The position numbers and the translations under genes are program-made. Below, piece after piece: positions 18,001-51,000 of a stretch of 64,000 nt of DNA. This DNA is from an uncultured Planctomycetales bacterium (GTDB lineage Bacteria > Omnitrophota > Gorgyraeia > Zapsychrales > JAHFFX01): positions 508,896 to 572,895 of the forward strand of contig CAZTCI010000001.1 of assembly GCA_964612665.1 (NCBI GenBank), read 5' to 3'. The notes under the pieces were generated by a model, which saw only the letters and a program-made list of their open reading frames with translations, made no database searches and had not been told where the DNA came from. Positions within the stretch are counted from its first letter, which is position 1. Each line of letters starts with the position of its first letter.

Positions 18001-21000
18001 CGGTAAAATGATCAAGATTTGGGCAGATGAGGTTTTGTCGCGATAAGTCTTTTCAAATTTTCTAAGTGATTTCTCGGTTTTAGAAAGGACGTCATTATAT
18101 GAAACAACCATGAAGACCGCTGCTGATACAAACATCAACAACGGCAAAACAAAATGCCCAGTTCCCCGGACACTTTCCCATCCGGTAAAGATCGGCACCA
18201 GAAAGGAATTTTCCACCTCAACATCGGAAGTTGAGGTCATTTTGCTCTGATTTTGCAGGATCCGAGCTATCCGGGAAAGATAGAGAACATAAATAACGCT
18301 TGCGAAACCAATAAGCAACGTGAACAATTCTCCATTGAAAGCAATCATTCCGAAACCAAACAACTTTGTACGATCTTCCATGAATGTTTTAAGGAAATCT
18401 CTCATCTTTTCTTGAATTTGAGATCGAAAGATATCCTGAACCCGGCGAGGCATAATATTCATACGGGTGCCCGCTTGTTTCCATGCTTCAAATTTTTCTT
18501 TGGTGAATTCTGCCATGAGCCATTGATCTTCTTCGATGGTCTTCAACATGCCACCTTTTTGGGGGTCAAACATTTCACCCAAAACTCTTGAAAAGTCATT
18601 CACATCAAAAGCGACCATGCGACCCAGCTTTCCATCATGAGAAAATGTCAGACCGTAATTTTCTCGCCAATTATGAAAATCGCGATCAACCAGTCCATAT
18701 GTCCAAATCCGACGCGTCAAATTCGAGAATTCGTTTTGAATGTGCCGAAGCTCCATTTGCAAAGCACTCACCTCATCCCACTGTTTATGTTTCTCAGAAA
18801 TCTTTATACGACGGGCAATGGCATCCAGCACTTCTCCAACGGGATGCACGCGTTCTTGAACAATCACATAAGGGAAACTGGTAAGTTTCTCATCCACGAC
18901 AATCGTCAAGTTATTTAAAATAGTCAACGTCATGGCAAAAAGATGGCCCAAATGTTCTTTAACCAATAGGTATCCAGGCAACACTTCTCTCTCGAAGTCC
19001 ACGTCGGCCTTCGGGACCTTGATAATAAGATTTGGAAACGCATAGGAGTAATATGCTTTCATCAGCCCGCCTTGGTCCAAATAATGAAAGGTATGACCTC
19101 GTAGAATACCTTCAACGGTGGTGATTCGAATGTGGTCAAGGTGTTCCTGTAAAACAGTATCCTCTATTCCCATTCTACGCCCCCATTGCATCAACCTTTC
19201 AGGCCAGCCCTCCATATAATTGTCCAATAGCGCTTCCAGAAGAGCATCTTTTAAATTGTTCCTGATCCGACGTGATATAGGTTGGAGGTGGCGTTGAATT
19301 AGTTTTTGATATAACCATCTGAGTATTAATATTAGAGTAACAGCAGTAACTGCGATCAACACCCCTACACGCCACCCATGCATCAGCTCGCTAGAAATAA
19401 GCTGGGCGTTGGATTTTTCCGTTGTTACATCAACCTGCGGGGCCGAAACAGATGAAAACATTTCATCCACCAGCCGTTTGGCTTCCTTGGCCGCATCCAT
19501 GCTTGAACTCATTTTTCCCGAAAAAATGGAAATCTCTCGCGGACTTAAATGCTGAACCGTCGTCGGCCGCGCCGCATTCTGAACCGAACTCACCAGAAAA
19601 TCTTTGAGGGTAAAGATCGAACCAATATGGATCGGATTGAAATCGTGGAAGAATCGATGAGCTTCTTCTTTGATTTGGTCAAATGCCGTCACCGTTGGAT
19701 TCCAGATGATATCGCGTCCCAGTAAATCTTTATACTCATCGGGAATTTCTGGAAATTTGCCAACGTTGAGATGATGAATCGAGTGCTTCACATGAGCGAT
19801 AAAGTGCGCATTATTGCCTAAAGGATTGATCCCGACAAACGGCCCGTCCATAATCAAAATACTTTTGCCCCGGAATGCCGGAGGAAGAAGGACGACAGGC
19901 AACTCAAAAACTTCGAATTGATAGTTTTGCTGATTGGCCGGTTCCGCAATGAACCGATTAATATCGCTGTAAACGGCGTAGACAACGGCATCATAGTTCT
20001 TTAATTTTTCCGGAGTTGCCTCCTGAATGAGCACCTGCACATTGAATTCCTTAAGTTTATCAACGGAGATCTCCGCCAGCTTGCGGATGTTCATAAAGTC
20101 TTCCCCAACAAGCAGCGATAATCCCACAGAATTTTGTTTTAACACCTCCGGATACTTTGTCTCGTAAGGCAAATTAAAACGATTTAATAAAGTCAAATAC
20201 TGCTCGGGCGTAACCGCGCTTCCTTCCGCGGCGATTGCATAGTATTGTTCCAAACTCAAAACCGCTTCACCGAAGACACTCAAAAAGCTTTCACGAGAAT
20301 TAATGACTTCTTGGACAGTTTCTGGACTGCGCGGGTGATGATAGCCGCGATGCAAGCGGCGATCCCAATTGCCGGACACGCCGCCGAAGAGTTTGTTGCG
20401 TTCATACAAAGTCACATCGTATCGAGAATCTTGAGCAATAAACCATGCGGCCGTGATCCCGAAGATTCCGCCTCCGATGACAGCGACTTTGCGTTTCGAT
20501 GGAGCAACAAACGCAGAACGGGACGCCGAAGGAGGTATCCCGGCATCGGCACTCAAATCGAAATCAAAGTATGGCTCCTCAAGCATGTCATCCAAATCGA
20601 TTCCCTCGAAGACCTCTCCCGAATTATCATTAGATTGAACAACTTTAGGATTCACGGGTTCTTCATCTTTCCAATTCCATCCGCCCGCTGCGATCTTTTC
20701 ATCAAACAACCGATGCGGATAACGCATAATGACCGCGTTGACGCCGGCGAATCCGCCCATGCCGTCGTGAACATCGTAACGGCCGCGGATGATGTATTCG
20801 CGATTCCAACGCACCGCTCCGTTTTTCTCGTGATAGCCTTGCGCCGCGTCGGGACTGTAGGTCAGCAATTCTTCCAGAGCATCGCGCCAGGCTTGCAAAG
20901 CTTGAATGTAAATGACCGCAGTGCCGATCCCGCCGACTTGCTTGCCTCGCACGCGATAATGATCGACCCGCGGATGTTTGGCCACAGCCAAGACCGATGG

Positions 21001-24000
21001 AATCGGCGCTCCGACGGAAAAATTAAATCTGACATTGCCATCGTTGTCCTGGATTCCTTCTCCAGCGAGCGTAAAGCGATTCGTCAGCGTCTGAACGTGT
21101 TCCAAAAATGTGCCTCGAAATTCCTGCGCGTCACCATGCTGAATCAAGTCGATCATCTCCGGCGTTAGTTTTTTCTGAATGCTCCAGATCACCGCGCCGA
21201 TGTAACGTCGAGTCACTGCCGAGCGAATCATTTTCCCATCGGCATCCAACGGGTGTTCGAAGACCTCCGCGACCACATGTCCCGTTGGGTGATTCAGAAT
21301 CATGGAACGAATTTGACGCGGACGGATCTGTTCGTAGGGCTGATTGACCCACGCGTCGTTATGAACCTGATAAAGTTCAAGGACATTCTCCAACGTCGGC
21401 CAGCGATACACAATCGTAATCCCCTGCTCCGGACGCTCCTCGCGCACGAACAGCGCCAGGTCGTCCAGCGGAATCTGCTCTATATTAGGAAAGAAGCGCT
21501 GCAGGGCATGATTCAATGTCGTGGGGATGTCTTGCCTTTGGAGCGCCAGCGGCGACGGAGCGGTGGACTCAAAATTCTTGATGCGGAATTGATAATATTC
21601 ATCTAAGGTGCTAAACCACGTTGAGAGCGGATGGCGATTGTTCTGGCGCCGAGCCGCTTCAAGAAGGCGGGAAGTTGAGCCAGAGAAGAACATCGTCGTC
21701 AAATGGCCGTTCAGATGGAGAGCTCTGGTATGAAGGATGGATACAACAAGGACTAAAATAATAGCCAAATTCAAAATCATCATCCATCCCCTGTCGTCAA
21801 AACCGTGGATGGCGAGGAAGTAGGTATGGGTGTTAGAATCGGCCGGACGAGTTACATAAGAACTCTGTCTAAGGACGGTCGCAATCAAAGCGAAGGCAAC
21901 GACAATGTATATATTAGAGAAGATACCTCGAACCTTTTTCTGATCTCCTCCGAACGCCTGCTCCATCGTTTTAGTCTCGAGACGGCCGGGATTGAATGGC
22001 GTCCGATCTTCCATCACTTTCCTTAGAATTCTCAACCGCCCGCCCAAGGCCAGTTCGCGGGATTGTCTGGCCGTAATGACATCCACATCCTGATCCGTAA
22101 ATCCGCGGGTTTGGAAATTGGAAATAGGATGCGCGTTAAAATTCTTGAGACGGGAATATTGTGCGTCGGTCAACCGGGCCTTGGCTTCATCCACATAACG
22201 GCCGGACGCAATCATTTGATCGGCTAATCCTTGAGGAGCAAAGACCCCGAATCGGGTCGGATGCTCCCAAACAACAATGATCACTCCCATTGGAAGACTC
22301 GCTAAAAATTCTTCTGTCCATCGCCGCGTCGATTCCAAGGGCGAAATGGTTCGATCGAGTTTGCGCGTTAGCCAAATATAAATATATTCATAAGCAAATT
22401 TTAAAAACACAACGTCCGCCGGCTTTATGTCTCGAACAAACGCTCTCATTTCATCTCTCGACATCAAATCACTCATATGATGATGAAGAGGCGCCAACTT
22501 TTCCAATCGCAGAATCGGATGACCGACGATCCCGACCAATTTTTCTTTCAGTCTTTTAAAACCCATCGTGATATCCCACTCACTCAGCCGATTGTCCACA
22601 GTTGTCATGGACGAAACATAATAACCGGCAAATAAATCAATCCCGGAAAGGATGTTGTGGAGTTGCGTATTGTTACGATTGAAGATCCCGATGGCGGAAA
22701 GGAGTTGTAATTGCAGGAAATAAATTCTGACTTTGATCGGAATCACGCTGTGTACGGTGAGCTGATCCTCACCGAGCCGAATCTGCTCTTCAATTTTACT
22801 GAGGATTTTTCGAACCGATTTTAGTGAATGGAGGAATTTAAATTTGAAAATGGAAACGACCATGAGTAACACGATGGCCAAATTCAAAATCATCATCCAT
22901 ACCCCGTCGTCAAAACCGTGAGTGCCGAGAAAATAGGCTTTGGTGTTGGAATTAGGAACCATGCACGGCATGTTCCACCCGATCATCATGTATCGGTTAA
23001 AAACAGCGATATCATGGTTCCCATCAGGTTTGACACCTCCAGTCATGTGTGTTATTCTTCCTTCACCGGAGGGGGACAACCAATGCATAAACGAAAGGAT
23101 AAAAACATGAACGCCATCAACATGACGGACATCGTCCGCAAGTCGATGCAAGAACTTGTTGTCCCTGAGTTGAAAATCTTGCAGGGTGATGTTCAGAGTC
23201 TCTAGAATGACAATCTTGAGATCAAGGCTGATCTTCGGATCCTCAATAACCGTGTCGACAATCTGGAAAAATCTTTGAACAGCCGGATGGATTCTCTCAA
23301 CAGCCGGATGGACTCCCTCGAGAAAAGGCTGGATAACTTGGATAAAAGGGTTGACGGCCTTGAAAGGCAAATTCATAGCATGCGCGAGGATTTTAAGCTC
23401 GCGCTCGATATTCATGAGCGGCTCACTGCGCTTGAAGTCAAAATTTCTCATCATAATTAGGCAGTGGTTTTGTTGACGAATCATCGCCGGGCCGATTTCC
23501 TCAAAGTTATATAAAGGAAATCGGCCCGTTGTTTTTTGGTTGCTGTATACGATTTTATAGAACGCCGTCACTGTCGAATCCCAGATCATATCGCGCCTAA
23601 GTAAGTCTTTATATCCCATCCCACCGGATTGACCATACCAAATGAAATAAACCAATGCCCATAAAACCAAGGCCACATCAATTCCAACCATGTATGATAA
23701 ATATGCCGATTGAACGCTGTTTTTATTTTGATCTGGCTCAAACGCAAACAAGCGCACGGACAGACGCGAATTCATATTCCTTAAAAGTTCATTTTGCTCA
23801 TTTATGATTTTTTCCAAATTCAACCGTCTCGCGATGGCCGCCGCGCCCACCAGTGCGACAATAACTTGGATCTCCCGTTGACCGGGCAGCCAGTTTTCCT
23901 GAAAATGCAGACGATTCATCTTCTTGATCAATTCTTTCTTCAAATTTAATTTTATTGATCGAATTTTGCCGGCCCGGGACGACAGAGGCACGTCAAAACT

Positions 24001-27000
24001 TTTGACTTCCACAAAAACTAATCGGTGGTTAGAGTCGATCAACACAGCGTCGATTTCGAACGACTTGTTTTCTCGATGGGGATCAGCGATTTCTTTATTC
24101 AAACTCACTACTTTGAAATGAAAATCCATCAGCAACTTGTGTACCGCCCGCAACTCATTGAGCGTGCCAAATCGTAACCCTTTTTTGATGCGGTAAAGAG
24201 CTTTCTCGATACCGTCCTCATTTAGGAATCTTTCCACCAACGAGGCCTCATTCACATTCAACGTCGGTTTCACCTCAGACCAAAGTTGTTGAATGTACGT
24301 TCGCCTGTCTTTCTGATGCTGTTTCCAAACCCGCTGATAAAATCCGCCATCAATCCATCCGTGCTCTAACGATAATCCCAGCCATCGCTCTTGTTTTTCC
24401 CACCGAGAAAAGATAAGCGGCTGGAAGAATTCTCGCGCCTGCAAAAAGGCCTGCACATCTTCATTGAGAAGCTCGTCGGAGTTCTTTAAAGGAGAAACAG
24501 CGCGGCTCAATTCATGCCGCAACAATAGCTTGAGCCATAACCGGCCGGTGCCAGGTTGCAATTTATTGAACATCTTCACAATCCTCTCGACCTGCCGGTG
24601 AATCAAAATGACGTGGTGTTGCGGATCATAGTCAGACATCAGGTCGATCAGTTCTCCCGTTGCTAATGGACACAGAATATGGTCTGCCCACAAAACCGTT
24701 GTAACCTTGGCCAAACGACTGTAATCCAAATTAAAGCTCTCAATGTCTTTAACAGCGATATCAAACCTTTCCGGAAAGTAAAACGCCTTCCCGTCGGAAA
24801 ACTTCAATGTAAAATGTTCTCGCCAGTTTCCTTCGGCCAATGAAACTCTCTGCGTATCTTCGTCGGTTGACGATGATAAGGCTTGTTGAATGTCGTTGAA
24901 CAACGCGTCCGTCGCTCGCAGCGACGGGCCTGATGGCGTCTTTAAATAAACCCCTTCACCTTCTTTAATCAACTCCGGCGCAACAGCCTCAGGCCATATC
25001 GCCCAGTGCCGATGAGACATCTGCACAGCCGCCGCAAGAGCGGCAGACATCAAAACAAGACTTACAATGCCAGCCCAATGCCAAACAATCATTACAACCG
25101 CCACAATTAAAATAATCCCCATGAATAAACTTTGATTTTGGTCTTCGTTCTTTTTATCGACGGATGCGCAGGATGCGTTATGACCGTTGCCATCCGCCAA
25201 AACCAATTTGTGCCGGCGCCAAAATTCATCGAGCTTCTCGGGATAGTTCACGACCGTTTTTACATCCAGCAGTGAGAATTCTTTGAATAAACTAAAGGCC
25301 ATATTGACCAATTGCTGTTCCGTGACTGGAAGTGACGGTTTATAAAAACTTAAAACCGCGTGTTTAAGCATCCCTTTTTTGCCGTCGGTCGCAAATCCGG
25401 ATTTTTTCTTCATATCCGTCAGCGCCTTGCGGATCGCCCAAATTAAATCCTGGTTGTTTTCAAAAGCCCTGGCTTCTTCCGTCGATATAAATACAGCCTC
25501 CTGAATAGGAACGATGATTGTTCCATCACCGTTCTCAAAAGGTCCTGTCAGTTTAAACAATTTCCGTTTTTGATCGACCTCATAAACCCTGGCCATCGCA
25601 TAAATATTCGTCATCACATAAATTGCCCATTGCCGGCTAATCAAATCTAAATCTTCCGCTGACAACCATAAATGAATAGGGAAAGACGGCTTATGTTCGT
25701 GGTAGCCCATCGAAATTTTATTGGGATTGCTTCTGCCTAGGATAGCGGCCGCTTGTTTATGGGTGATGCCGGGTAAAAAGGCTTTAATCAAACGGAAGCG
25801 CTCACGCATCCCCATCCATTTATCTAAGACCCTCAACGACGGCTGGCCGCTTGCAGCTCGTCGCTGGTTAATTTCCACCACCCAGTGTGCGATTGTTCGT
25901 TTAGGAATATTTGTCATCTGCGCGAGCTCTTCGGCCCAGGTGATGGTCAATTGTTCAGCCATGGATTCAACTAACTCTTGGCCCTGGGCATGTGTTGTTT
26001 GTGGACGTCTTTGTGATTGCTCAACCCATCGCTCTAAGAAAGCAGTATCCTCGGCGCTTAAGGTAATTTTTAAAATAGACAACAGGTTTTGGACAGCTTG
26101 CGGTTTCGGAATAGTAAAGCCTCTTTCCCATCGGTCGTATCTTGCTTTGCGGATTTCCATTCCGGGCATAGCATTGAGCATAAAGTCAAGCTGACGTCTC
26201 GATATAGTTTCGTCCTGGCGTTCTTTCTCGATGAGTTCGAAGACGCGTTTCAGGAAATCTCTGTATGCCGCATCCCGGGTCCACGGCAAGTTGCCGCGCG
26301 TCAATTCCACAACAGCCATTACCCAAAAGATACCAAGCCCGAGCAGTCTAACGCCCCAACCGCTCCCCAACGTCTCCCATCCAATCACCGCCTTCGCTTC
26401 ATGATCGGATTTTCTTTCATCGGAATCAACCGGCGAAATTGAAAAATGATTGGCGTTTATCGATGGGCCATTTTCAAAATCCAAATACTGAATAAACTGT
26501 TCAAATCGCTTCCAGAAAACAATGGTGACATCTATATTCTTCGTCGGATGATTGGCTTTGATAGTCCAGAATCCGAAGGCCGTGGTCCATTTCAATGACT
26601 CGATAATTTTAAAATCGCGGGACAAAACATGCTGCAAATGGTAGGCATCTTCCATAGAAAAATGCGCCATTTTTCCAAACTGATAAATGGGCCCTTCAAA
26701 CGGCAGATGGAATTCCCAATGTCCTTCGGAACTTTTCGGCAAATTCGCAAAAAGATCCGCCATTTGCGCACTCAAACATAAGCTATTATTACCGCCCACC
26801 ACAATAACATGGTGCGCGTAAGGCCATAGCTCGTCGGTTAAGTACTCTGATTTATAACCCGCATGACTTAAATAACTATCATCTCCGTTCAGATTCTCAC
26901 TGACATTTTCAAAAACGGCAGTGATCCTGGGATTCTCTAAAAGCTTATTGATAGACGAAGCGGCTGTCTTCAAAGGATCAAACTCTTCGTTAGTATGAAC

Positions 27001-30000: not shown

Positions 30001-33000
30001 TTGCCGAACGGCTTGGTCATTGTGCATTGTCGCCCAAACACTATGCATGCGCTCTTCAGGAAATTCTTCTGTAATTCTGGTGTAAATCTTTGACATTTCA
30101 AAAAGCGGTTCGGCTCCTGCTCGCAAGAACACAATACGCGTGTTCTTCCGGTATTGCTTATTCTCTTCGTGGGATCGAGGATATTCTTTGATACGCATGA
30201 ATACGTGTTGTATGAAATCCATCAATCCCAGTCTGCGCTCGGCGCCATGACCCAAAAATGTCGTCAAATGTTTAGTATCCAAATAGTGTTGATACGCTTT
30301 GGCAAACATTGCTTGATCCCCCGCAGAAAAGATTCGTCCGAGGGATTGAATACTCTGATTACGCGCGCGAACATTATCTTCATGTAATCTGAGTCGATTT
30401 AATCTAACCGAGGCAATGGCCGCAAATCCTGCCAGGATTTTAAAGATCAGCATTACACCCTTGATGCCGATTATGATCCACGCGGCGTCGAGGGTGAGGG
30501 CGGGAAGCTTTCCAACATCAGATGTTGGAAAGGGCGGGTTCAACCTGCGGGGTTGATGTCCGTTGGCATGCTTCTCTTGCGGATGGGTGAACTTTTCCGA
30601 GGAAAACTTCTTTATATCTTGGTCGCTCCACTCTTCTCCAAACACCTTTTTTAAATCCGATTTATTTCCGTTCTTTCCGTTCCTCTCCTTCTTTGCCAAA
30701 TCGTCATAGAATTTTTTCATGATCTCATCTTGCCGACGATCGAACTCCTCGGCGGAGAGAGACCAGTCATCTCGCTCTCGTTTGTATGCTTCCTCCGGTT
30801 TCCGATTCTGATTTAACCAAACGTCCTTAAGAACATCGTAGAGATTACACAACATGCGATTCCCCGCAAATTGCCTTAATCCCTCCCGATTGTCCTTATT
30901 CTTCAATATAATGCGGGCCATTTTAGTCTTCTCGAGATCCTGCTTGAGAAGGTGAACTAGGGCTTCATGGCGTCCGAGGTTTATTTTGGCCTCCCCGAAC
31001 ATGTCTTTCACAATTTGAACAAAAAGCTCAGGACCGATCTCCCTCATCGATAGCCAGGCATGCAAGACGATTTCTACTTTTTCTTCCTCGCTTTGAATAC
31101 GATGATGCCAAATCCAGATTTCATCAGAATTTTTGAGACCGCCAGAGGCATGGGAAGATCGAGAAAGGTCCCCATAGATCACACCGACGACGAAGAAGAC
31201 CACGATCAACATTTGTATCGGCGAGAGAACCGTCGACTCCACTCCCAATCCCAAGGCATTCATGGCCGTTGGTTTCCCGGGCCCGCGGAATGCTGTGAGT
31301 TCATTCAACCTGCGGGGTTGATGCCCGTCGGCAATTTCATTCGAAGACTTGATGTGGCGGAATCCTCGGTCGGAGATGTTCAATGTGAACCCATCCTCAT
31401 CAGAGAAACTACTGTAAAACAAAATCTCCCGGGCCAAATACGTTTCGTTAAACTCGATGACCAGCGCCTCACGCTTTTGGCCCATCTCCAACAGATCGTT
31501 CCACAAGAATGTTCTTGAAAAACGAAGTTCGCCAGCACCGATACGAAACGTAATGATGATGTCATTTCCGATGAGCCGGCCTTTCACAAAATAGATCCCT
31601 TGATCTTCCGTCACAATCCGGATTCTGGAATGTCTCAACAGCGTTGAAATCGGCAATTTGATTACTTCTCTGATATGATAAACTTTCTGGAGGGAATATT
31701 CGGCGTAGAAGGACAGCTCGTCTGCATCTGGAAGATGAAGGATAAAGTCATGAATCGGCGGCAATCCGCAGGCGGAATTGGTGAGCATGGCCATGATCAT
31801 AAAACGGATCAGCGTCGGGCTGCGAGTGAAACCAGCGACCTTAAGCCAGAATAGCCATACGATCATTGCCGTAATCAAAACGGCGAGGAAATATGCTAAG
31901 AAAGCAGCTGATAATTTCTCCTCAGAAGACGTCTTCCACCAGGTATATTTTTCCTTCATCTCATGATAGGAATTCAAAATAAGATTTAACGTTCCCTTCA
32001 CGCTTTGTTCCGTTGTCCCCCGCTCGGTGCTGATGTCTTGAATCGTCCATCCATTTAAGATCAGCGTAATAATCTCGCGCTGCGGCGGCGACATTTGATT
32101 CAATAGGGCCCGACGATGTGGATCCAATGATTGAGAATCGCGGATAATTTCGCCCAGGATTTGTTTCCGTTGAGAAGCACCCGCGCCTTGGAAATGAATG
32201 TTGATGCCTTCATGCAGCGGATATAATTCATCGCACCTTTCTTCCCGTTCAATTTGTTCTCTTAGGGGTTTCAAAGACAATTCGTTCTTAAGATCACGGT
32301 ATCTGAGTAATCCTCGACGGGCGGTGATGATCACCGTAGTCCACTTAATCTGCAATAGTCGGGCCACATCCGCCGGATGATAACCTGCAATGGCAAACGG
32401 AAGAATTTCTCGCTCCTTTTCCTCCAGCTGATCAAAGATCTCTCGATGGTCCAAGAGAAAATCTTGTTTAACCTCTCTGAGAATATTGATGAATTCTCGA
32501 CGGTTGGGAGATTTCAGGAAGAAATTGAATTCCGCATCTCGATCGTTGCGGATAACCATCATGGCCAACATGCCGGGTAAAAGGAGTATGACCAAAAAGT
32601 AAAGGCCCTGTATTTCTATAAAAATGATCTGTGTAAACGCGATCAAGACAAGCACGGACGGGAATACGGCGGAAAGTTTTTCCACCTTCCGATCTTGCGA
32701 TGTGGGGGCCAACTCTTTCTCAACAAGCTCCCCACGATATACCATCCGCTGAACAAGGCCCATCGGATAATTGATTTCTTTTAAGTCACCCTTATAGGCT
32801 TCACGCCGGATAACTTCATTGAGCAGGCGAAGTTTCTTTTTGATCTTTTGGACCTGATCTTTTTCTTGCGCACTTAAACTTTGATGATTAACGTATTTTT
32901 TGTGAAGTGTATAATCGTAAACGCTGAGCGAGATCGTCTGTTGTTCTTCTCCAACAATAACGACATTACCTTGATCCCCGGCTGGTTCGATGAAGAATTG

Positions 33001-36000
33001 ATACACAATTCCCTCAGCATAGAGATAATATTGGATTTGTGCATGGCTGTTATTAAAAATGCGGATATCATCAACCGAAAGATAATGCGGCCCATCAGGA
33101 TGATTGTGCAGGTCCAAATAAACGAGGGGATAATCTGGATTTAGTTCCGGACCGACGGAATCCTTATCGCCTTTGACGATACTGTAAAGGTCCCCTTCCA
33201 AGGATTGATGGGAAACTTCAAAAGGTAAATATCCAGAGGCGACGGTGTAAAAACGATCAATCGCGCGCCAGAACTCCGGCGTCCCGACGGCCGCGGCAAA
33301 TGGTCGAGCGCTGTAGCGTGTTCCTTCCTTCGCACTAATAATATCCTGCTTTATCTGATCGAGCGTCATGACTGGCCGACGCTGGATCCGGGAGATAAAC
33401 TTCCGACGGATGAATTCCTGGGCTTCCAGTTCATGGACGGCCATACCGATTATCGCGACCGCCGTCAGGCCGAGCAGGCTAAGCCAATCGGTATAGGCGG
33501 AAAGTTTTTCCACCTTCCCAACCCCGGAGGTTGGGGAGGATAATAATTTTTGGCTAAGATCTGCAGCCACATCCAAGTTTTCCAACACTTTCGTCGCATC
33601 TTTAGAACTTTTAATAAAGACAACCGCCTGAGAAACCGCCGCCGATATTGTTTCTATTTCGCCGATCATCGGAAAACTTCTCTTCCAAATAGCAAACTGG
33701 TGATTCCACGCAGCCAAACGCAGTTTGATGGCCAGATACCTCTTATCGGCCCATAACTCCTTCACTTGATCTCGGGCATGGACCATCGACGGGATTCGGT
33801 CCAAGGACAGGAGCAATCTTTCCTGATTTTCCCGTCGTTGTGCTTCCTGAAGTTCCCGTAATTCTTTTCTAATTTGCTGTAGTTCTTTTAAACTATGGAA
33901 CAATTGCTCAGTGGACGGGCCTTTAAGGACCGTCCGCGACATAGCTGCTGCCATTGCCCCCATCCCAGCAGAGAGCAATATCTTTCCGACGGGGATTCCA
34001 AACCATAACGCGGTCCCCCCATCTACACCTACGAGGTAAAGATGGATCCCCACTCCATACAACGCCAGTGCAATCATGACGGATGGAAATATGGCGAAAA
34101 GTTTTTCCACCTTCCCAACCCCGGGGGTTGGGGAGGATCTGAGGATCACCGCCAGCATTTCAATTAGTCCAACCAATCCCTTAAACACAATCCAAATCCA
34201 CACGGCTTCGATCGTGACGGCGGAGACGTTCTCGATGGGATTGTGATCGAATTCTTCTAGCGCATCGATTTTTCCGTATAAATATTGGGCCAAATGGCGG
34301 ATATCTTTTCGATAGTCGTGCGTCTTAACCAAATCCCAGAGGTTCAATTGTTCCCATTGATCGCCGGCAGCTTCGAGAGCTGCTTGGATTATCTTTAACC
34401 ATTCCTTCGCATAGAATTCTCGATGACGGAAATTGGACGCCACAATCCAGTGCAGTAATTCTTCTTCGGAAGATGTCTTCAACATCTCAATCGCGGCCCG
34501 GCGTTTGGCTGGCGAAGTGACCACCAAATCATTCATCCGCAAATGCTCGTTGAGAATGTGCTTCAGGCGCCGAGTCCTGGCAGAATTCGCCAAGCTGGTT
34601 TTATTTGTGAAGTCATCAAGAGAATTGAACGGATTGTTTAGCTTGCGAACCATCACCACAAATTCGGTCTGCGTCATTGTAAATCCACTCAAAAGAAAAT
34701 CCACCTCATCAGCGTAATTAAGGAAATATAGAATTTGTTTTTTGGTGTTTTTCGGGTGCTTCTGCAATTCTCGACGATGTTGCTCCGCATTTTCTTTCTT
34801 CTCTTTTCGTCTTTCGTTCTCTTTCTCTAAATCCGCCCGTGCCCTTTCACGAGGATTCTGAAATAGAATCTCTCGACGGTTTTCGGACGTTCGTTCCCAC
34901 GACATCGCAAAGACAAAGATATATGCCAGCAACATCCACGGACTGAACAGATAAGTACGAACTCCGGAATGATGGACGATTTGTTTCTGTGGAGTTTCTT
35001 CTTTAGTTGACAAGCCAACTTTCAGGGCTTGGGCGCGGCTGGCGGAGAGGTAAATCAACCGTTGAACAAACATGCCCGCGATCATCAGCACCGTAAAGAC
35101 ACTCATTCCCGTCGATAAATCGATCGTCACGGCGCGGTGTTTTTCGATATCAGAAGAACGACTTGGTGTTTTATCTTGTGCATTCAACCTGCGGGGTTGA
35201 ATGGACATCCTGTTCCCCTTCACACCTCCGAGGCGCGAAAGAGCATTATTTCTTAGCTTTTTACGAATACTTATAATTTTTAACACTGAACGAATATGCC
35301 ATTCTCTTAGCCCCAACCGCTCTTCCCGGATTTCTAATCTATCCCCAGGATATTTTTCAAAATCTGCAGTCACAATTTCGATAAGCCGTTCCCTTTTTTC
35401 TAGCTTTTCTCTTAAACGCACTCCCGCGGCTTTCTGCTTTAAGAACGTTAAATCATAATCCGGCCATATTTTGCTAATAATGTAATTCGACACTTGTTCA
35501 ATGTATTGATGCGATGATCCCATCTGTTCGACAATGATGCTTGATGATTGATCCAAAGCTATTTTGCGGACTAACACTTCTTTTTGCGGGAGCGTTAGTC
35601 CATACCTATCTCCTATATCGTTAAGGGTCCTTACAAGTCCTTCTTTAGTGATGGCATAGCCACTACTCTCCATAATGTCGCGAGCAAAACTTACTCTATT
35701 ACCATGCTCCATCGCTGTCTCCTGAGACGATAGAGAAGATCGGTATTCCTGGATCCCTTTTTGGCGATCTCGGTTTCGCGCATATGTATTTCGTTCGCCT
35801 CGAATTTTTAAATTAATTCCATTAACGACATATGTCAATAAGCCTACGCCATTGCGCCGATCAAATTTGATCACACTGCTGCGAATAGTTTTAATGAAGT
35901 CATCTGTTCTTTCCTTTAGGAAGGATCTATTCCATCTCTGTTTAACTAAGGGCATTTCTGTCAGACCGGCGATGAGGACTTCCATCGCCAAACCATCTTT

Positions 36001-39000
36001 CTTATCTTGAATAAGGTCAATTAAACGGCTCTGTTGCTCACGGCTTAAATATCCTCTGGAATGACGTGGCATGCCCAAGATCGTATTGACAGCGGCTTCA
36101 TCTCTTTGCTGAGGAGCCCAAATAATTTTAAGTTTAGACTCTTTAATAACCGGCACAGGAGGATTCAGCCCGTACCATTTCTTCATTTCATAAAGAATTT
36201 CTACTGAGCTTTTTCCTTTTAGATCGTGATTTTTTGCCCAGTTCAGCAGAAGCCCCTCTAAACATTTTCCTCCAAACCCTGGAATACCTGTATGAATAAT
36301 ATCGCCCACTTTTAAATCTACTATCTTCCCTGCACGGCGATGATTGGCTAGATGTTGAAGGATCGCCCATTGCAACCGCTCTTCAAGTTTGTCCCAGGAG
36401 AATTTCCTCGCCCGTCGGAATTGATCCAATACCGTTTCCAATTCTTCAAGGGTTACTGGTTTTTCTTCTGCCATCGTCATAAGAACAGCAGATGCGCAGA
36501 GGACTGCTATCCACGCTTCCGCACCTACGAGGTGCTGATGGGTAACCATGGCGACGAAAGCGGCGGAAATGATGATAAAGCGGAAGACTCCGTCGAGGAA
36601 ATCATTCAGTCGGCTGGGTTGAACAAATACAATTCGACGCAAAATGGAATTCACATTGTCTTGGCCGACATACGCAAGCGCCGCCGCAATTCCTACCAGA
36701 ACAAAAATCCATAAGGATGGACCAACGGCCATCAGTTTTATCTCTCGATCCCAAAACTGACTTGGCCCACACCGGCGGACAACAAATTTCTTTTCCAAAT
36801 CCTCTTTGACCGTCGTCACATCTTCTTGGACGATCGCGTCCGCCACACGTAAAGAAAATCCCATTTGCAGGGCCTGACGGCCGGGCATGGATGGGCTATA
36901 TCTCAAGCGAAGCCCCTGAATCAACGCGCGATAGGGCGCTTCCTGTCCCCGGAGAAACTTAAGGAAGGCAAACTGTTTGATTTCTTTGGTGGATACGGAG
37001 GTTTCAATATTATTTCTAAGATACGCTAAAAATTCTTTGTAATAACTGACCCAGTGCTCAAGGATTCTTTCCAGCCCCAACTCATTTAATTGTTTGTTCA
37101 AACGATTTGTGTTCCCAAAGACCAAATCTGTCGGTTTAAATTTATCAAATGTATCGGAGGTAATAGGACTCAATAAACAGCGCTCATTTAACGTTGATAC
37201 ACTGAGCTCATGCTTTTCGCCCCCGATTCTGACCCACCGCCCCAATCCCCGTCGGGCCAGGGCAATGAGATATTCGGGTTCGATATCAAATTGATCTTTC
37301 CCTTGATAATAAACGTGAATGTCCAGGTCCTTGATCATGGACCACAATGGGATTTGATTTTCGCTAAAAAGATAGGTCGAGGAGCCGGTGACCGTGATGA
37401 TCGGAGCCTCCACAATGGATAACGTAGCGACTTGCTTTAGAAGTTCGATTAAATCGACCGGCGGTAAAGCTGGATTGTCTGGCTGAACAATAAACTGGCG
37501 CTCAGGACGATAGTAGGAAATGTGTTCATCTTGGTCCACGATCAAAACAGGCCAATGCACTGTTTGGACCGCCGCCAGTAATATCAGCGCGTAGACCGCC
37601 TCGTTCAAACCGATCAGATCTCCGTGGGCCAAAAGACCGGATAAAGCCGCGAGGATGGCGATAGGGCGGAAGAGTTGTGCGATCAACCTGCGGGAGTGAA
37701 CAGACTTGATAAAGCGGAAAATTCCGTCGAGGAATAACATCACCCTCTCCGACGGCGGCGAAGTCTTGAGAAATTCGTAAAACGCGCGGAGGTTTTCAAG
37801 GATGACGCGGGATTTGGAGATTAGAACAGCGGCCATCAAAACAATAATGAGAATTTCCGCGAGGTGAAACACATTATTCGACGAAAAATTTGATTTTCTC
37901 GTCGGTCTTATCCGTGCAGTCGAAAGGAAATCGATTCGATGGGCGTTCAACGTCGCGGCATCTAATAATTCAAACCCTGGGAATGTTTGATCGACGATAT
38001 GTTTAATCAAATCCGCCAACTGATCCGCAGGGATTTTGATTAGATATCCTGGAATTCGGTGCATCTGCTGAGGACTAATTTCCCTCATCTCTTCTGCAGT
38101 CAAAAATTGAACCGCGGCCATCGATACAACCCGGCCTTCTAATCTGTTGACAGTCCATTTTCGCGACATTATACTTTGAATCGAAAAGGAGATAGATTGA
38201 TGACTTCTCTTCAAGATGCTATGAAAATCATTAAACCGCTTCAAAACCGTTTCAAGAAAAGCCATAAGTCCAGAAGAAAAACGAAGATTGCCGACGATCT
38301 TTTGGGTGCGTTCAAAGGTGCGACCGAAGGTAAATCTTCCAGTCAATGTGTTCGAGAATTGAGAAATTCTTCTTATGGTAAGTTTAAATAACCCTTCCTT
38401 GCTCTTGGACTCCGATGTCCTTGTCAGCTGGTTGACGCTCGAAGAAGATATTCTTACCCATAAAAAGCTCTGGGAAGCTCCCCACAAAATAATGACAATG
38501 GTTGAGGAAAATTCTTCTCTCGGTTGTTCAACGATTATCAATCTTATGGAAATCAGGTTTGTGTTGCGTGCTAAGAAGAAATTCAGTGAGCATAAGATTA
38601 CATCTTCTCTTAATAAACTCTCCGAGATTCTGAAGCTATTCATTCCAGATGAAATCAACCTATTAAAGGCGAATGAACTCCAGTCCAAATATCTTTCATT
38701 ATCGCCAACCGACGCTATCCTTCTGTCTGTGGCCACAACCCTAGACAATGTTGTCCTAATCACCCGCGATCGAGAATTATTGAAAGCTGCCTCAAAAATT
38801 GTCTCCGCATCAACTCCTGAAGAATTTCTGGCGAAACGCTGATCTCTTCTGTTCCAATAAAAATTCCCCACCAGCATTGCAATTAGCCCAACCACTCCCT
38901 TAAACACAATCCAAATAAAGCGGAAAATTCCGTCGAGGAATAACATCATCATCTTCGACGGCGGTGAGGTTTTAAGAAGTTCGTAGAACGCGCGGAGGTT

Positions 39001-45000: not shown

Positions 45001-48000
45001 TAAAGATTCCATCTGAGATATTTCCGCCTCCTCTTCCAACGGCGAGACTTTTCCCGGAAACTGGAACTCAAACTTCATCTCGGGCTCAGAAGGCTGAAAA
45101 GCAATTCCAAAATAATGGGCGAGATGATGGACTGATTGAAGAAATCTTTCCATTGGTATCCTAGATCTTCCCAGTTCATATTCCGACACTGACCACCGGC
45201 TTAATTTTAGAATTTCGGCAAATTGGGTTTGAGACAAGCCCAGCTTCTTACGAATGCGGGTTAAATCCGAAAAATATTTTTTCAGTAAAGCATTCTGTTG
45301 GCTGTTTGGAGAGGATTTCCCTTCTTGTTGAACATCATTGATGAATTCTTTCACTTCCCTTGGAACCTCACTGGAAACATTGTCCATTAAGAAATTGATG
45401 ACCTTCTCCATTGACTTTGCGCTAAGTGTCCCCGCATCGGCAGAACTTGCGCGATCTACGATATATTTTGTTACTCCCATCAACGCCATTTTCTCGACAG
45501 AGAATTCTTGCTTAAAGCGATCCAGTAAATGCTTAATGGGCTTGCTCAATCTCTTGCGTTGTTCTTCTCTCGACGCACGCAAAGCTTGGACATACAAAAG
45601 CTGCATCTGATGCTTCCACTCGTTAATGTCTTGAGACCACTCACCCATGGGCTGAACATCCTCTTCTTCTTTCCGTAGAATTTCTTCCGTCCGTTGGGAC
45701 TCAAACTTCGTTGCGGGCTCAGAAATCTGAAAAGAAATTATTGAAAACTTTTGAAAATAATTCTCCACAATTCTTTCTAATAACGGTGTTTCCTGCATCC
45801 TCCAAGGACGAATTGTTTTGCCTTTGTCCAAATCATTCTCATCGCGATGAGAAAACTTCGCCATCCCCAACATCACGCCCGCGAATCCCAGAAGATTAAT
45901 GAACGCGATGAAATCCATTGCATAAAAATGCGCCGTTCCGATCATGGCCAGGATGGATGCGATGATCTTTACAAAAATTCCGTTGATCATTGTAAACAGC
46001 ACCATCGCTCCCATAACGACCGACCAAACCACCCAACCACCGGCCACGTTGAGAAATACGATAGAAGACAATGTGCTTATCCCCGATGGGACCAATTCAA
46101 GTTGCTCTGGATTGGTTTGAGCAATATAAGATCTAAATATATATAGTTTCTCAAAGTAACTTTTATTTATGTCGGAAACGAGATAATCTAGACGATGATG
46201 ACTAATTCCCTTTAATCCTTCCAACCGTAACATCGCATTAACAAAATTCATGGCTAATGAATTATTGCCTTTGCGGAATAAAAACCATTGGCTCGATTCA
46301 TCGTGCCCAAAAGTGCCTAAATAGAAACCAAAAATGCGTTCAATACGACTATTGATATCCTTCTGTTGCTGACCGTCCTTGACCCATTCCCCCAGATGAT
46401 TCATCATCTTGAGAATCCGTCGATGAATATCCTCTTTGGATCTCGCTCTCAGTTCTCCTGCGACATTCAAGGCATAATCCTCACTTGGATAAAAGCGTTT
46501 TCCGTCCTTGCCTAACAGAAGAATGATATTAAAATTCTTAAGCCAAATTAAGAAATCTTGGGTCGTGGTTATACGGTCCGAGACGAAATTGAATAACAAA
46601 CGCAAAATCTCTCCTCGAACTTCGTGGGAATTAATCCAATAATTCCTCTGCTCATCCATCGACGGCCATATTGCTAAAGTCGAAGGATCCGGGTTTCTGA
46701 TCATTTCTTCTTTAGGTAGCTGTAAGGCATTTTCCCAATTCCAAGTCGGCATGGCCCGTTTGAACATCGCCAGTTCTTTTGTCGCCACATCAACAGAAAC
46801 ATCCCGGTCTTGCTGAAGAACCGGATCAAAAATCACAACAGTTGGATTTTCCGAAGTCCCCTTCACTGCCATCCTCACAGCACCCGCCATAACGATCGAT
46901 GCGATCCCCAGATAACCAATCATCGAATGCCCAAGCCAGGCAGCCGTCAATACCTCCAAAAGCCCGGTAATTCCGACGATAAGAACCCAGTGATACCACT
47001 TTGCTTGAGCCAATAGCTCATGGAAAAATTCCTTTGTGTCTTGAACGATGACCTTCCAACTCAGCCTGGTCCTCCATGCCCGTTTCCACTCCATGACCAA
47101 GATGAGGAATTGAATCAAAATAATCAGGCCTGTTACGATTGTGATGACAAGATCGGCCGTCGGTGAAAGTTCCTGTTGGGGCACCACATAGGCCGCCTCG
47201 GTCAAGCTTGGCAGAATCCCCTGCAAAAACAAAACGCCGGCAAGCACCAACAACAGCGCAATAGCCACGAATACGAAATCAAAAATTCCTGCTACCGTTA
47301 CCAGATCTCCAAATCTCTCAGAAAACTTCGAAGATAAAATCCGTGCATTCCAGCCAAACGGAGAAACGAGGCCTTCATCCCCTAGGTGGATTTCCGGTAA
47401 ACGTCTCAAATCCAAAATCAAATGATCCTGGCCAGCCACTTGGCGTTCTTTTATTTGGTAAATTCCTCTGAAAAAGTCATTGTTCCGTAAGAGAAGATAA
47501 TCAAATTGGGCGGCTAATGTTTTAAGGAAATTGTTTTCTGGTTTGAAGAAGTCCCGCGCTCGACGGTACATTCTTTGTTTGGCCTGCGTTTTGTTCAGTC
47601 CTTCATGTTTTTGATAATAGGCGCGCACGGCCTCGTGGTTATATCCGGCCATATGATAGACGCCGAGCTTAACGATCCTTTCGTTGAAATAAAGCTCAAG
47701 CGATACGAGACTTGACTCTTTAGATGATCCGAATAGATCAATCGAGACAAGATTTAAATTTTCATTAACCTCAATCTGTTGAACACCGTCCCAATCGTGA
47801 GTTAATTCCAAAACCCATTGCTTGAAGGATTCTGATAATTGATCATCATTAACAAATCGCATCGATGCCAGCGTCGAAGAATTTTGGTCCATCATTCCCG
47901 CGGTAACAAAAATCATCGCCCACAACACCCCGATTCCACCTACGAGGTGGAACGTGGTCCAAACGGCGATTAGGAAGGAAGGTATAACGGTGAAGCGGAA

Positions 48001-51000
48001 TAATTGATCGAACAGCGGCGCCGAAATCTTCGCCGGGACTTGGGTACGTTTGGCGGTATTTATAATCAACACAATAATGACAACCGCCAGCGCCAACATG
48101 GTAACAGCAAGAAATTTCTTATTTGTTGATTCAGGATTGCTTTTTTGGACCGATGGTAAGGATGTCCACGGCATTAAGACTCCATCGACTGAGAATCGCG
48201 CTGCCAAGGCTTCCGGCGACACGACGTAATTTTGCGGGAGAAATATATCCGCCAGAAAGTTCGGGTCTTTTTGACTTCGACCTTCTGCAGTTTCTACTCT
48301 GATCAGTAAAGAAAAGACATAAACCTGAAGAGGTATGACATTTATATCTGTCTTTGCGTCTTTCAAGACGGCTCCGATATGATGGAAACTAACAATCTTA
48401 TAAATTGTTTCATCATCAGAAAAAGCAGCCGTATCGTGGAGAACACCCGCCAACCATTCTCCATAACCGATACGCTTTTGAAGGTCCATGAGATGCTCGG
48501 ACCGGATGCCTCCAGCTTTCTCATATTTAATATCTTTGATATACCCTGCCCCTTCCATTCGCATAATTATAGCGGCCATCACTTTAATAAAGTCGCCAAA
48601 TAAAGTATGCGCCAAATCCTCCGACGGAATATCAGATACATTTCGAACACCTTTCTGAGCGTAATGTTCCAGTATGCTAAAAAAGGCCTTACGACCTTCT
48701 CTCAATGAGCGACCGAGATAAGGAAATTGAGTTAAATAATCGGCACCCGCCAGTTCCTTGACCAACATGCCAAGAAGAATCGTCTTTAAAATCTTGCTTT
48801 CTTCGCTCGAATCCTTTGTATAACGAATTAAAACAGGAATAATCCTCGGATTAATTAGAAAATCAAATTCAAGATATCCTTCACTGTTGATTGCGAATCC
48901 TTGATCTGTCATCTGGGGAACAATCGCGATGGGTGATTTGGAATCTCTGGGAAGAAAATCAAACTTACCGGTCATTCGCTTTAGGATTTCAGCCCAGCGC
49001 CGTTCGCGCTCATCGGAAGAATGAGCCCATTGAGCGGCTGTTGTCTGGAAAAATTGTCTAATAACCCGTTTAATTTCTTCGGGAGAATCAGGTAAAGATT
49101 CCTTTTCCTTGCGGGAAACAGCAGGAACGGAATTCGATGGTGCGGCAAATATGAGCGTTGATGTAAAGAGGAAATGAACGGCCGTCAGAAGAATCAAGAT
49201 CTTCTTAGAAATCGGCGGCGGTGAATTCTTCTGACGTTCAAAATAGCGTCGAAACTCGCTTAGACTCATCAATCCGCCGGCGAATCTTCTCCCAATAAAT
49301 ATAAGCATTACAACAACCACGCCCAGAATCGCATACCCATCTACACCCCGGAGGTGTAGATGGGTAACAGGATTTTTCTCTGACTCAAAATCACTTTCAG
49401 CAAAAGCACCTTCCAAAAGTGCGCCGACACGTTTCAGCCAAACATCAAAGTCAATCGCTTCATGCTGTGCCAACCACATAATGGCCTGCTCGAGCACTTT
49501 CACATGCCGAGGAAGTGCTTTTTGTTTCCAGGCCGGTAACGCGTTATAGGCCATGACATCCACTTGGACGCGGGCCGTTGTCCAATTTTCCTGTATGAGC
49601 AATGCGCGTACACTGCGCAAGACGTCTGCGCAATTTTCTATACCAATCGCATCAGTGAGAAATATGTCGATGTGCGTTGCATTCTCTTCTTGGGCTTCTA
49701 CCTTGGCCCATACATGAACAGCCGAAAGGTCGCGGTATTCAGCGACGACGGAATTCACCAGATCAATCAACGCGCTGCGGTCGTCGCGGTGCATGGTCAA
49801 TGCAATGTCCTGATTTTCCAAAACATCTTTGAGATGAAGCAGGAAGCTTACAACTTTATACGTGCCGGCCTGCGCAGCGAGTTCGATGCCTCTGGAGACA
49901 ATTTCCATGCGGACAACTGGATTGCGAAATTCAACAGCTGTCAGACCTAAAAGATCGTTGAGCGCAACAACGCTCGGTGATCTGTGAATCTCGTCGGATA
50001 ATTGATTCATAACAGTCAAGACACGATCCATTTCTTCTGTTTGAGCTTCGATAGCCGCTGACAAACCGTTAAGTATGTATAAAATCCAACGGAATTCTGG
50101 ATTATATTGCTTAGTCATCGCTGATACTATTGCCTTCGCCTGTCGAAGCGGCGCTCGAGCCAGATCTATTTGATCATTTGAATAGTGACTCCAGGCCAAG
50201 TACACGTAAGCAGCCACTTTTTGCGGTTCTAAAATATTTAATGATGTGATCGACGTCCAGCGTCTCACAGCTTCATCATATTCTTTTTGTTCAAAACTAA
50301 TTCTAGCCTGAGCGATTGCGGTCAAAGACAACACGCGGCCCTTTATGCCCAAATCGGAATACTGCTGGCTCCATGCTTTCAGAAGCCTGATTCTCTCGAC
50401 GGCAGATTCGAATTTCTGTTCCGTAATATCTATGATGATTCTGTAATAATTGGCCAGAATGTCCAACTCGATATAGCTAAAGTGGGGATGAAACTTCTGG
50501 GTCAGCATTGGCTGATAATGTGTCACATACCGATTGTTGATAGCGAGCGCCTGCACAAACGCTTGATTAGCTTCTACATAATGTTGCTGATCAAAATGAA
50601 TCATGCCTTTAAACAACGTAAACCATGCTTGTTCCAAGGAATCATCAGGGAATTTTTTGATCGCTTGATCGGCGGCCTGCAAAGCGGCTTCAAATTCTTC
50701 AAAAAGGGCCAAATGTAAGACCTTTCCAGTCAACTGCACAGACATGTCATCATCTTTTTCTGTCCTTTGTACCAAAACGCTCTGTTCCTGACGTGACAAC
50801 CATATCTCGACGGCATTTTGCACTTTCGCGACATCCAGGTTTTTCACTCTCGTCGCTTTCGAAAGAACAGCGCGTACCGTCGCTTCGTTTTGAATGCCAG
50901 CGACCAATGTTCTTAACTCCTGATCACTCGGCTGACCGCTTGGCAGATTCGGCAAAACATTCCGCAAGGCTCGACGCAGAGACGCATAATCTGTTTTGGG

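Follow-up and report, generated by a model that had tools for sequence, protein, structure and literature searches.

How does one short DNA word come to recur along a protein-coding sequence, in unrelated surroundings and in two codon phases, with the reading frame left open throughout? The question is raised by a 64,000-nucleotide stretch of contig CAZTCI010000001.1 (positions 508,896 to 572,895; hereafter the window), which consists of a single minus-strand frame (offset 1), free of stops over all 21,333 codons and continuing past both ends. The other five frames hold 849-1344 stops each, and ordinary open reading frames (ORFs) reach at most 307 amino acids (aa). Within this giant gene a 13-mer, TCAACCTGCGGGG, recurs as the core of a short hairpin. 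The copies are DNA-level elements and not a protein motif, and it is argued here, with moderate confidence, that they are hairpin elements resembling repetitive extragenic palindromic (REP) sequences, of the kind associated with REP-associated tyrosine transposases (RAYTs), living inside the giant ORF.

Exact matches to the 13-mer lie at 19430-19442, 30540-30552, 31305-31317 and 35184-35196, the four places listed in an earlier note on this DNA, and a search of the window for exact and one-mismatch matches adds a fifth copy, TCAACCTGCGGGA, at 37683-37695. All five are on the + strand and at least 765 nt apart. Dinucleotide shuffles give an expectation of 0.07 matches at one mismatch or fewer, and none of 100 shuffles reaches five, in keeping with the view of the earlier note that chance recurrence is unlikely. 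The 13-mer is also the commonest 12/13-mer of the window, with five copies of its 12-mer core, and its sub-words are 10-60 times over-represented, on the + strand only, relative to synonymous-codon shuffles that preserve the protein. Partial matches at 27272, 27655, 57094, 59857 and 63523 cannot convincingly be assigned to the family.

Host-frame codons begin at + coordinates divisible by 3, and the phase of each copy can be read directly from the single frame. In phase 0, the copies at 30540, 31305 and 35184 are read QPRRLN and the copy at 37683 is read SRRLI, whereas the copy at 19430 is one base off and is read APQVD. Thus the two codon phases previously remarked upon are real, and all copies nonetheless belong to one frame. 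The three QPRRLN copies share an exact 18-mer, TTCAACCTGCGGGGTTGA, in which the six codons are identical at all synonymous positions; the APQVD reading has nothing in common with PRRL, yet the bases are retained. The third phase, in either orientation, reads GGT TGA, a stop, and only two phases can therefore persist. That the same bases are read QPRRLN in the in-phase copies and APQVD at 19430 follows from the persistence of only those copies that stand in the two stop-free phases.

On the + strand the element forms the hairpin TCAACC-TGCGG-GGTTGA; the 13-mer covers the loop, one of the arms and two closing bases. Read on the coding strand, the 18-mer is TCAACC-CCGCA-GGTTGA-A, in which a 6-bp stem encloses a loop of 5 nt. 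The hairpin family that carries the 13-mer (family A; full-hairpin word TTCAACCTGCGGGGTTGAA) has a + strand consensus of about 31-36 nt, TGTGCATTCAACC-TGCGG-GGTTGAATGGACA. ViennaRNA predicts the hairpin in four of the five copies, and in the copy at 37683 pairs the conserved right arm with a different upstream partner. The copy at 35184 has 13-nt arms that are 92% complementary, and its RNA folds at -13.7 kcal/mol (z = -3.55), with none of 200 shuffles folding as well. In the case of the copy at 19430, the stem on the coding strand is held by two G.U pairs (UCGGCC/GGUUGA) and an outer stem.

Outside the hairpin the copies have little in common. Identity is 28/30 nt between the copies at 30540 and 31305, 22/23 nt between 31305 and 35184, and 25/31 nt between 35184 and 37683; the likeness spans 23-31 nt around the core and then ends. 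BLASTP of 200 aa to either side of the copies yields no cross-matches, and local alignment of 120 aa upstream or downstream scores at the background of random pairs. The earlier note had left a choice between an element that acts at the nucleotide level and a past frameshift, with compensation, inside a duplicated junction. The first is supported by the identical QPRRLN codons, the background-level flanks, the palindrome, and the insertion of one copy relative to its paralogs. Support for the second is weak. Aligned on the coding strand, the copies at 19430 and 37683 follow the pattern TCTGTT[T]C-nnn-CCCGCAGGTTGAT-nnn-ACAAC, in which a 1-nt indel just upstream of the core shifts the phase, and both copies read S V just upstream of the indel, with modest statistical support for the extra flank matches. 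A single indel at this position accounts for the phase change, but no homology extends beyond about 32 nt, so there is no duplicated junction, and insertion in the other phase explains the same data.

The copy at 37683 can be compared with paralogs. Three modules of the giant protein, M1 (aa 8354), M2 (aa 8756) and M3 (aa 9134), have the tract FLDG(I/V)FRFI in common, and the DNA of M1 and M2 is 84% identical over the 200 nt up to that tract (37709-37908 versus 38915-39114). In M1 and M3 the tract leads directly into a transmembrane (TM) helix, whereas M2 has KSVHSRRLIAQLFRPI in between; deleting 48 nt from M2 gives a gap-free alignment of M2 with M3. The copy at 37683 is a recent insertion, of 48 nt, with respect to its paralogs M1 and M3, and it is the one copy for which insertion is demonstrated, the other copies having no close paralogs for comparison.

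Hairpins of the same general form are in excess across the window. There are eight loci with the pattern ACC-N5-GGT and a stem of at least 5 bp, and seven with a stem of at least 6 bp, where synonymous-codon shuffles that keep the protein lead one to expect 0.58 and 0.22, respectively, an excess of about 14- to 30-fold. The excess persists under a fixed protein sequence, so the encoded amino acids do not account for the hairpins. An explanation by a protein motif only is rejected on this ground and because the codons are identical across unrelated flanks.

Evidence for the kind of DNA element involved comes from other organisms. Among GTDB representative genomes the 18-mer has seven single matches, in unrelated taxa, and viral contigs yield 26 single matches to a looser pattern, TCAACCTGCGGGGNNGA. 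In JGI metagenomes the 18-mer is found in 13 stretches, nine of which come from sample Ga0210057 and amount to 10 copies on eight contigs of about 31% G+C content (GC). Here, TTTCAACCTGCGGGGTTGAAA is a dispersed repeat, with nine of the ten copies intergenic. On contig Ga0210057_1005238 (locus L035, 11323-12075), two inverted copies of the hairpin flank a 221-aa ORF that matches the Pfam family Y1_Tnp (IS200-like transposase) at 27.7 bits, above the cutoff of 23; it has 110 homologs, of which the named ones are from Patescibacteria. The layout is that of a RAYT gene with its REPs.

Seven homologous transposase loci were compared with L035 (listed at the end of Table 1). Those with TGCGG hairpins encode proteins 41-60% identical to the L035 ORF, and the more distant homologs have a hairpin tip of the form ACC-TC(G/T/C)G(G/A)-AGT. 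Since the tip ACC-TGCGG-GGT recurs at three homologous loci whose stems differ, the tip is what the transposase clade conserves, and the stems vary. ACC-TGCGG-GGT is also the heart of the 13-mer of the window.

Table 1. Hairpin elements of the window, the insertion site of one copy, and hairpins flanking homologous transposase genes.
Feature	Position	Strand	Description
Family A, most complete	35177..35207	+	31-nt imperfect palindrome TGTGCATTCAACC-TGCGG-GGTTGAATGGACA; read S I Q P R R L N A Q
Family A	30539..30568	+	exact 18-mer, 6-bp stem, 5-nt loop; read A N G H Q P R R L N
Family A	31299..31333	+	exact 18-mer; read A D G H Q P R R L N E
Family A, one phase off	19421..19452	+	exact 13-mer; read S V S A P Q V D V T T
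Family A, one mismatch	37672..37707	+	36-nt inserted segment; read K S V H S R R L I A Q L
Insertion site of 37683 copy	37660..37719	+	12-nt direct repeat TTCCGCTTTATC / TTCCGCCCTATC (coding strand, 10/12 identical) around 36-nt hairpin segment
Family B hairpin	33517..33535	-	CCCAACC-TCCGG-GGTTGGG (coding strand); read S P T S G V G, then KVEKL and TM helix
Family B hairpin	34114..34132	-	CCCAACC-CCCGG-GGTTGGG; paralog of 33517 copy, in loop between two TM helices
Hairpin C	49334..49366	-	perfect 14-bp stem TACCCATCTACACC-TCCGG-GGTGTAGATGGGTA (coding strand); overlaps TM helix start (GVDGYAILGVVVVMLIFIG)
Hairpin	47934..47952	-	TTCCACC-TCGTA-GGTGGAA at TM helix start (FHLVGGIGVLW...)
5-bp relative of 47934 hairpin	36521-36535		GCACC-TCGTA-GGTGC
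L047 flanking inverted hairpin			CTCTAACC-TGCGG-GGTTGGAG
L048/49 flanking inverted hairpin			CCATTACCCACC-TGCGG-GGTGGGTAATGG
L054 flanking inverted hairpin			ATTACAAACC-TGCGG-GGTTTGTAAT
L051/53 flanking inverted hairpin			TTAACC-TCGGG-AGTTA
L055 flanking inverted hairpin			GTCCACC-TCTGG-AGTTGAC
L056 flanking inverted hairpin			GCCGCCACC-TCCGA-AGTGGCG
L057 flanking inverted hairpin			ACCACC-TCGGG-AGTGA

In the explanation favoured here, hairpin elements of about 31-36 nt would have been copied as DNA into unrelated places of the giant gene, in one orientation and never interrupting the ORF. The hairpin would belong to a class recognised by a Y1/HUH (IS200-like, RAYT-type) transposase clade, and the genome from which the window comes would itself encode such a transposase, which would have spread the copies. 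With REP/REPIN-RAYT systems (REPINs being inverted doublets of REPs), the elements share the format of short (about 20-35 nt), repeated, imperfect palindromes and a conserved tip on stems that vary among related transposase loci. In another organism, inverted copies of the identical hairpin stand on either side of a Y1_Tnp gene, and the hairpin is scattered through intergenic DNA. They differ from such systems in being translated within coding sequence, in being singlets of one orientation with no RAYT in view, and in that the named transposase relatives are from Patescibacteria and the host gene looks like one of the Omnitrophota type.

Several observations weigh against this explanation. REPs are defined as repetitive, extragenic and palindromic, and as flanking a RAYT (PMC3116915), whereas every copy here lies inside the 21,333-codon stop-free frame. 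The window, being a single ORF, shows no transposase gene, and the copies are singlets in direct orientation and not REPINs. As the elements are neither extragenic nor doublets, they are classed as a variant of REP/REPIN rather than as a member. The metagenome family was found with the 18-mer of the window itself, so that the first match was obtained by construction; the conservation of the tip across homologous transposase loci is independent evidence. Flanking direct repeats are seen at one of the five copies, that at 37683, with none of significance at the other four, and target duplications are not known from HUH transposition. Moreover, a purely selfish element does not predict that the hairpins of the window should sit at the upstream edge of TM helices, as they do in ten of ten cases (see below).

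Other known elements fit in part. Rickettsia palindromic elements (RPEs) are palindromic repeats of 100-150 bp that are found in-frame within ORFs and have no known associated transposase. Like them, the elements of the window resemble a selfish palindromic repeat that is tolerated in a protein-coding gene and adds a peptide with the frame intact, and the behaviour typical of an RPE is seen for one copy, that at 37683, which is absent from M1 and M3 and leaves the ORF open. They lie outside the RPE length range and family, however, being 31-36 nt long, of unrelated sequence, and equipped with a RAYT-type tip. The subterminal hairpins of IS200/IS605 elements are likewise small, imperfect hairpins recognised by an HUH Y1 enzyme in single-stranded DNA, but these stand in direct orientation at either end of an element with tnpA and/or tnpB as its cargo, and there is no such cargo here. 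Miniature inverted-repeat transposable elements call for terminal inverted repeats and a target-site duplication at every copy, and here a 10/12 repeat is present at the 37683 copy alone. Integron attC sites, uptake sequences, Chi/KOPS and ops-like elements were considered and set aside for their size, their density or the want of an applicable test. For instance, attC sites measure 55-140 bp, with paired R/L boxes and extrahelical bases, against a simple hairpin of 17-31 nt here, and the AAC...GTT resemblance is trivial for a palindrome of this kind. Rfam covariance models give no relevant match at E <= 5 in 19000-38200.

The strongest competing explanation starts from the placement of the hairpins. 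As the earlier note stated for its four copies, each 13-mer copy precedes a TM-like helix: the next hydrophobic 19-aa window (Kyte-Doolittle mean of at least 1.6) begins 6-16 aa past the motif in all five copies, where the median for random positions is 181 aa. The regularity extends to ten elements (five of family A, two of family B, hairpin C, and the hairpins at 47934 and 36521), each of which has its end in the range -11 to +16 aa relative to the point where a hydrophobic 19-aa window begins, a range that takes in just 12% of random positions (binomial P = 6e-10; still below 1e-6 with paralogous cases counted once). Such placement could mean that the hairpins are functional cis-elements at TM-segment starts, acting either as RNA that pauses the ribosome before a TM helix or as DNA recombination sites at which an enzyme specific for the hairpin swaps or duplicates TM-bounded modules. 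We consider this unlikely, though worth weighing. Three different stem families have the same tip, and, on the coding strand, each of the three wobble pairs in the imperfect copies is a G.U pair (partly our own reading), both of which would suit a function; the spacings of the in-phase copies, 765 and 3879 nt, would permit in-frame deletion or duplication between them. On the other hand, the loop in the mRNA reads CCGCA for family A but UCCGG for B and C, which speaks against one loop-specific RNA reader, and the copy at 37683 is a simple 48-nt insertion and not a module swap. Folding energy shows no general dip ahead of the 66 TM starts of the giant gene, most of whose TM helices lack such a hairpin, and linker composition does not differ between the upstream and downstream sides of TM helices. 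The association with TM helices is thus left unexplained by general TM-start structure and by linker composition. Former gene boundaries were also considered, and rejected, since the short loops that hold the copy at 37683 and the family B hairpins are found between TM helices within a single module.

A second alternative is that the copies are homologous juxtamembrane junctions, inherited with duplicated protein modules and marked by a conserved peptide x-H/Q-Q/S-P/S-R-R-L-N/I, with the copy at 19430 representing a compensated 1-nt frameshift. The gene does contain diverged tandem modules of about 330-410 aa, the paralogous contexts of the family B hairpins make their inheritance clear, RRL is common to the four in-phase copies, pairs of copies have 10-aa peptides in common, and the shared S V and indel of 19430 and 37683 described above would suit a frameshift. 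Inheritance of this kind is doubtful nevertheless, as it is at odds with the agreement of the three exact copies at every synonymous position of six codons with 120-aa flanks at background, with the absence of the segment from paralogs M1 and M3, with hairpins about 14-30 times over expectation under a fixed protein, and with the bases kept at 19430 under an APQVD reading unlike PRRL. Chance recurrence of a short GC-rich word can be excluded: by our own estimate some 30 chance 13-mer pairs are expected in 64 kb, and the probability that some 13-mer window of a three-copy family finds a fourth match is a few percent, but the shuffles described above never give five matches, and both divergent copies lie on the same strand, have further flanking bases in common with other copies, keep the hairpin and are followed by a TM helix.

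Besides the family A copies and the hairpins of Table 1, the window holds related sequences. A second 18-mer, AAAGTTTTTCCACCTTCC, occurs at 32673, 33501 and 34098 (and in part at 8952), in the same phase (GKVEKL) and directly before TM helices. Family B hairpins precede two of its three copies, and the third paralog, at 32673, is without a hairpin. A perfect 14-bp stem such as that of hairpin C has, by our own estimate, a chance expectation of about 0.002 per 64 kb. A perfect 12-bp palindrome, CTTTCCAACATC-A-GATGTTGGAAAG, is found at 30508-30532, 7 nt from the copy at 30540, and is single in the window; a perfect 10-bp palindrome, GACTTTTGCA-A-TGCAAAAGTC, at 40082-40102 has no strong TM segment adjoining it.

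Outside the window, low-GC contigs, probably of Patescibacteria (L035, L047, L048 and L054-L057), carry a REP/RAYT-type system of single Y1_Tnp genes flanked by inverted hairpins, with the conserved tip ACC-T..G.-(G/A)GT and stems that differ from genome to genome. The top-ranked literature matches include no paper that links RAYTs with Patescibacteria or Omnitrophota, and no description of this low-GC system surfaced among them. The full 19-nt hairpin, stem included, is common to the window (45% GC) and to the Ga0210057 contigs (31% GC), whereas closer relatives of the L035 transposase use other stems; this sharing hints at horizontal transfer or an ecological link. At one further locus (L038, 4113-4130), the TGA within a hairpin (GGTTGA) is the stop codon of the upstream ORF. 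Rfam models find only tRNAs on the metagenome loci, and the context of the metagenome repeats is uninformative with regard to hydrophobic gene starts.

The host gene is itself of an unusual class. In the giant protein, 72 segments reach a mean Kyte-Doolittle value of 1.8 or more over 19 aa, and about 70-130 segments in all are TM-like; Pfam matches (HATPase_c, HTH_3, Sigma70_r4_2, GerE, DAO, TPR) are scattered along it, and cysteine makes up 0.2% of its residues. SecA_DEAD scores 22.6 bits, below the cutoff of 24.6 bits, and P-loop_SecA is likewise below its Pfam cutoff. For a 1001-aa query that covers two of the copies, a set of 5.8 billion proteins holds no homolog, and a SecA-like segment as query found one weak match. 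Giant genes of Omnitrophota have been described as having numerous TM regions and divergent SecA domains (bioRxiv 10.1101/2023.11.21.568195; 10.64898/2026.06.07.730766). The ORF of the window looks like one of these (Archaeovorin type) in architecture, with the SecA matches below cutoff: it exceeds 21,000 codons and encodes numerous TM helices together with many unrelated domains and SecA-like segments of divergent sequence, and hardly any homologs of it can be detected.

Other repeats are present in the gene. An unannotated domain of about 280 aa is internally duplicated (aa 20-299 versus 1861-2132; window about 57600-63940; 27% identity, E = 1e-24), and modules about 400 aa apart that have otherwise diverged beyond recognition retain islands of high identity within old duplications (37709-37908 versus 38915-39114, and 36573-36600). 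A tandem run of the hexamer TGCTTT, of at least three units, lies inside the ORF at 2932-2955.

REP/RAYT systems and giant genes of the Omnitrophota type are both already known. Hairpins or palindromes in such genes are not mentioned in the two giant-gene papers searched (bioRxiv 10.1101/2023.11.21.568195; 10.64898/2026.06.07.730766), nor are translated REP-like hairpins in a giant gene, their strict placement before TM helices, or a hairpin held in common with a REP/transposase system of Patescibacteria, described there. Giant multi-TM genes may, by a speculative extension that we regard as a long shot, carry ACC-N5-GGT hairpins at the upstream edge of TM helices as junction sites for an HUH enzyme or another reader, with TM-bounded modules inserted, duplicated and exchanged in frame. 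A REP/RAYT-type system would then have been co-opted to build and diversify giant genes, and Omnitrophota-like cells may have it in common with Patescibacteria.

It is not understood how bacteria come to have genes of tens of thousands of codons, or how the frames of these genes are kept open. The finding of a normally intergenic class of repeat, translated in two phases within a giant gene, provides a concrete route for new linker peptides, and possibly for module junctions. The strict placement of the hairpins before TM helices, and the exact 19-nt hairpin shared with a REP/transposase system of Patescibacteria, represent regularities that can be tested.

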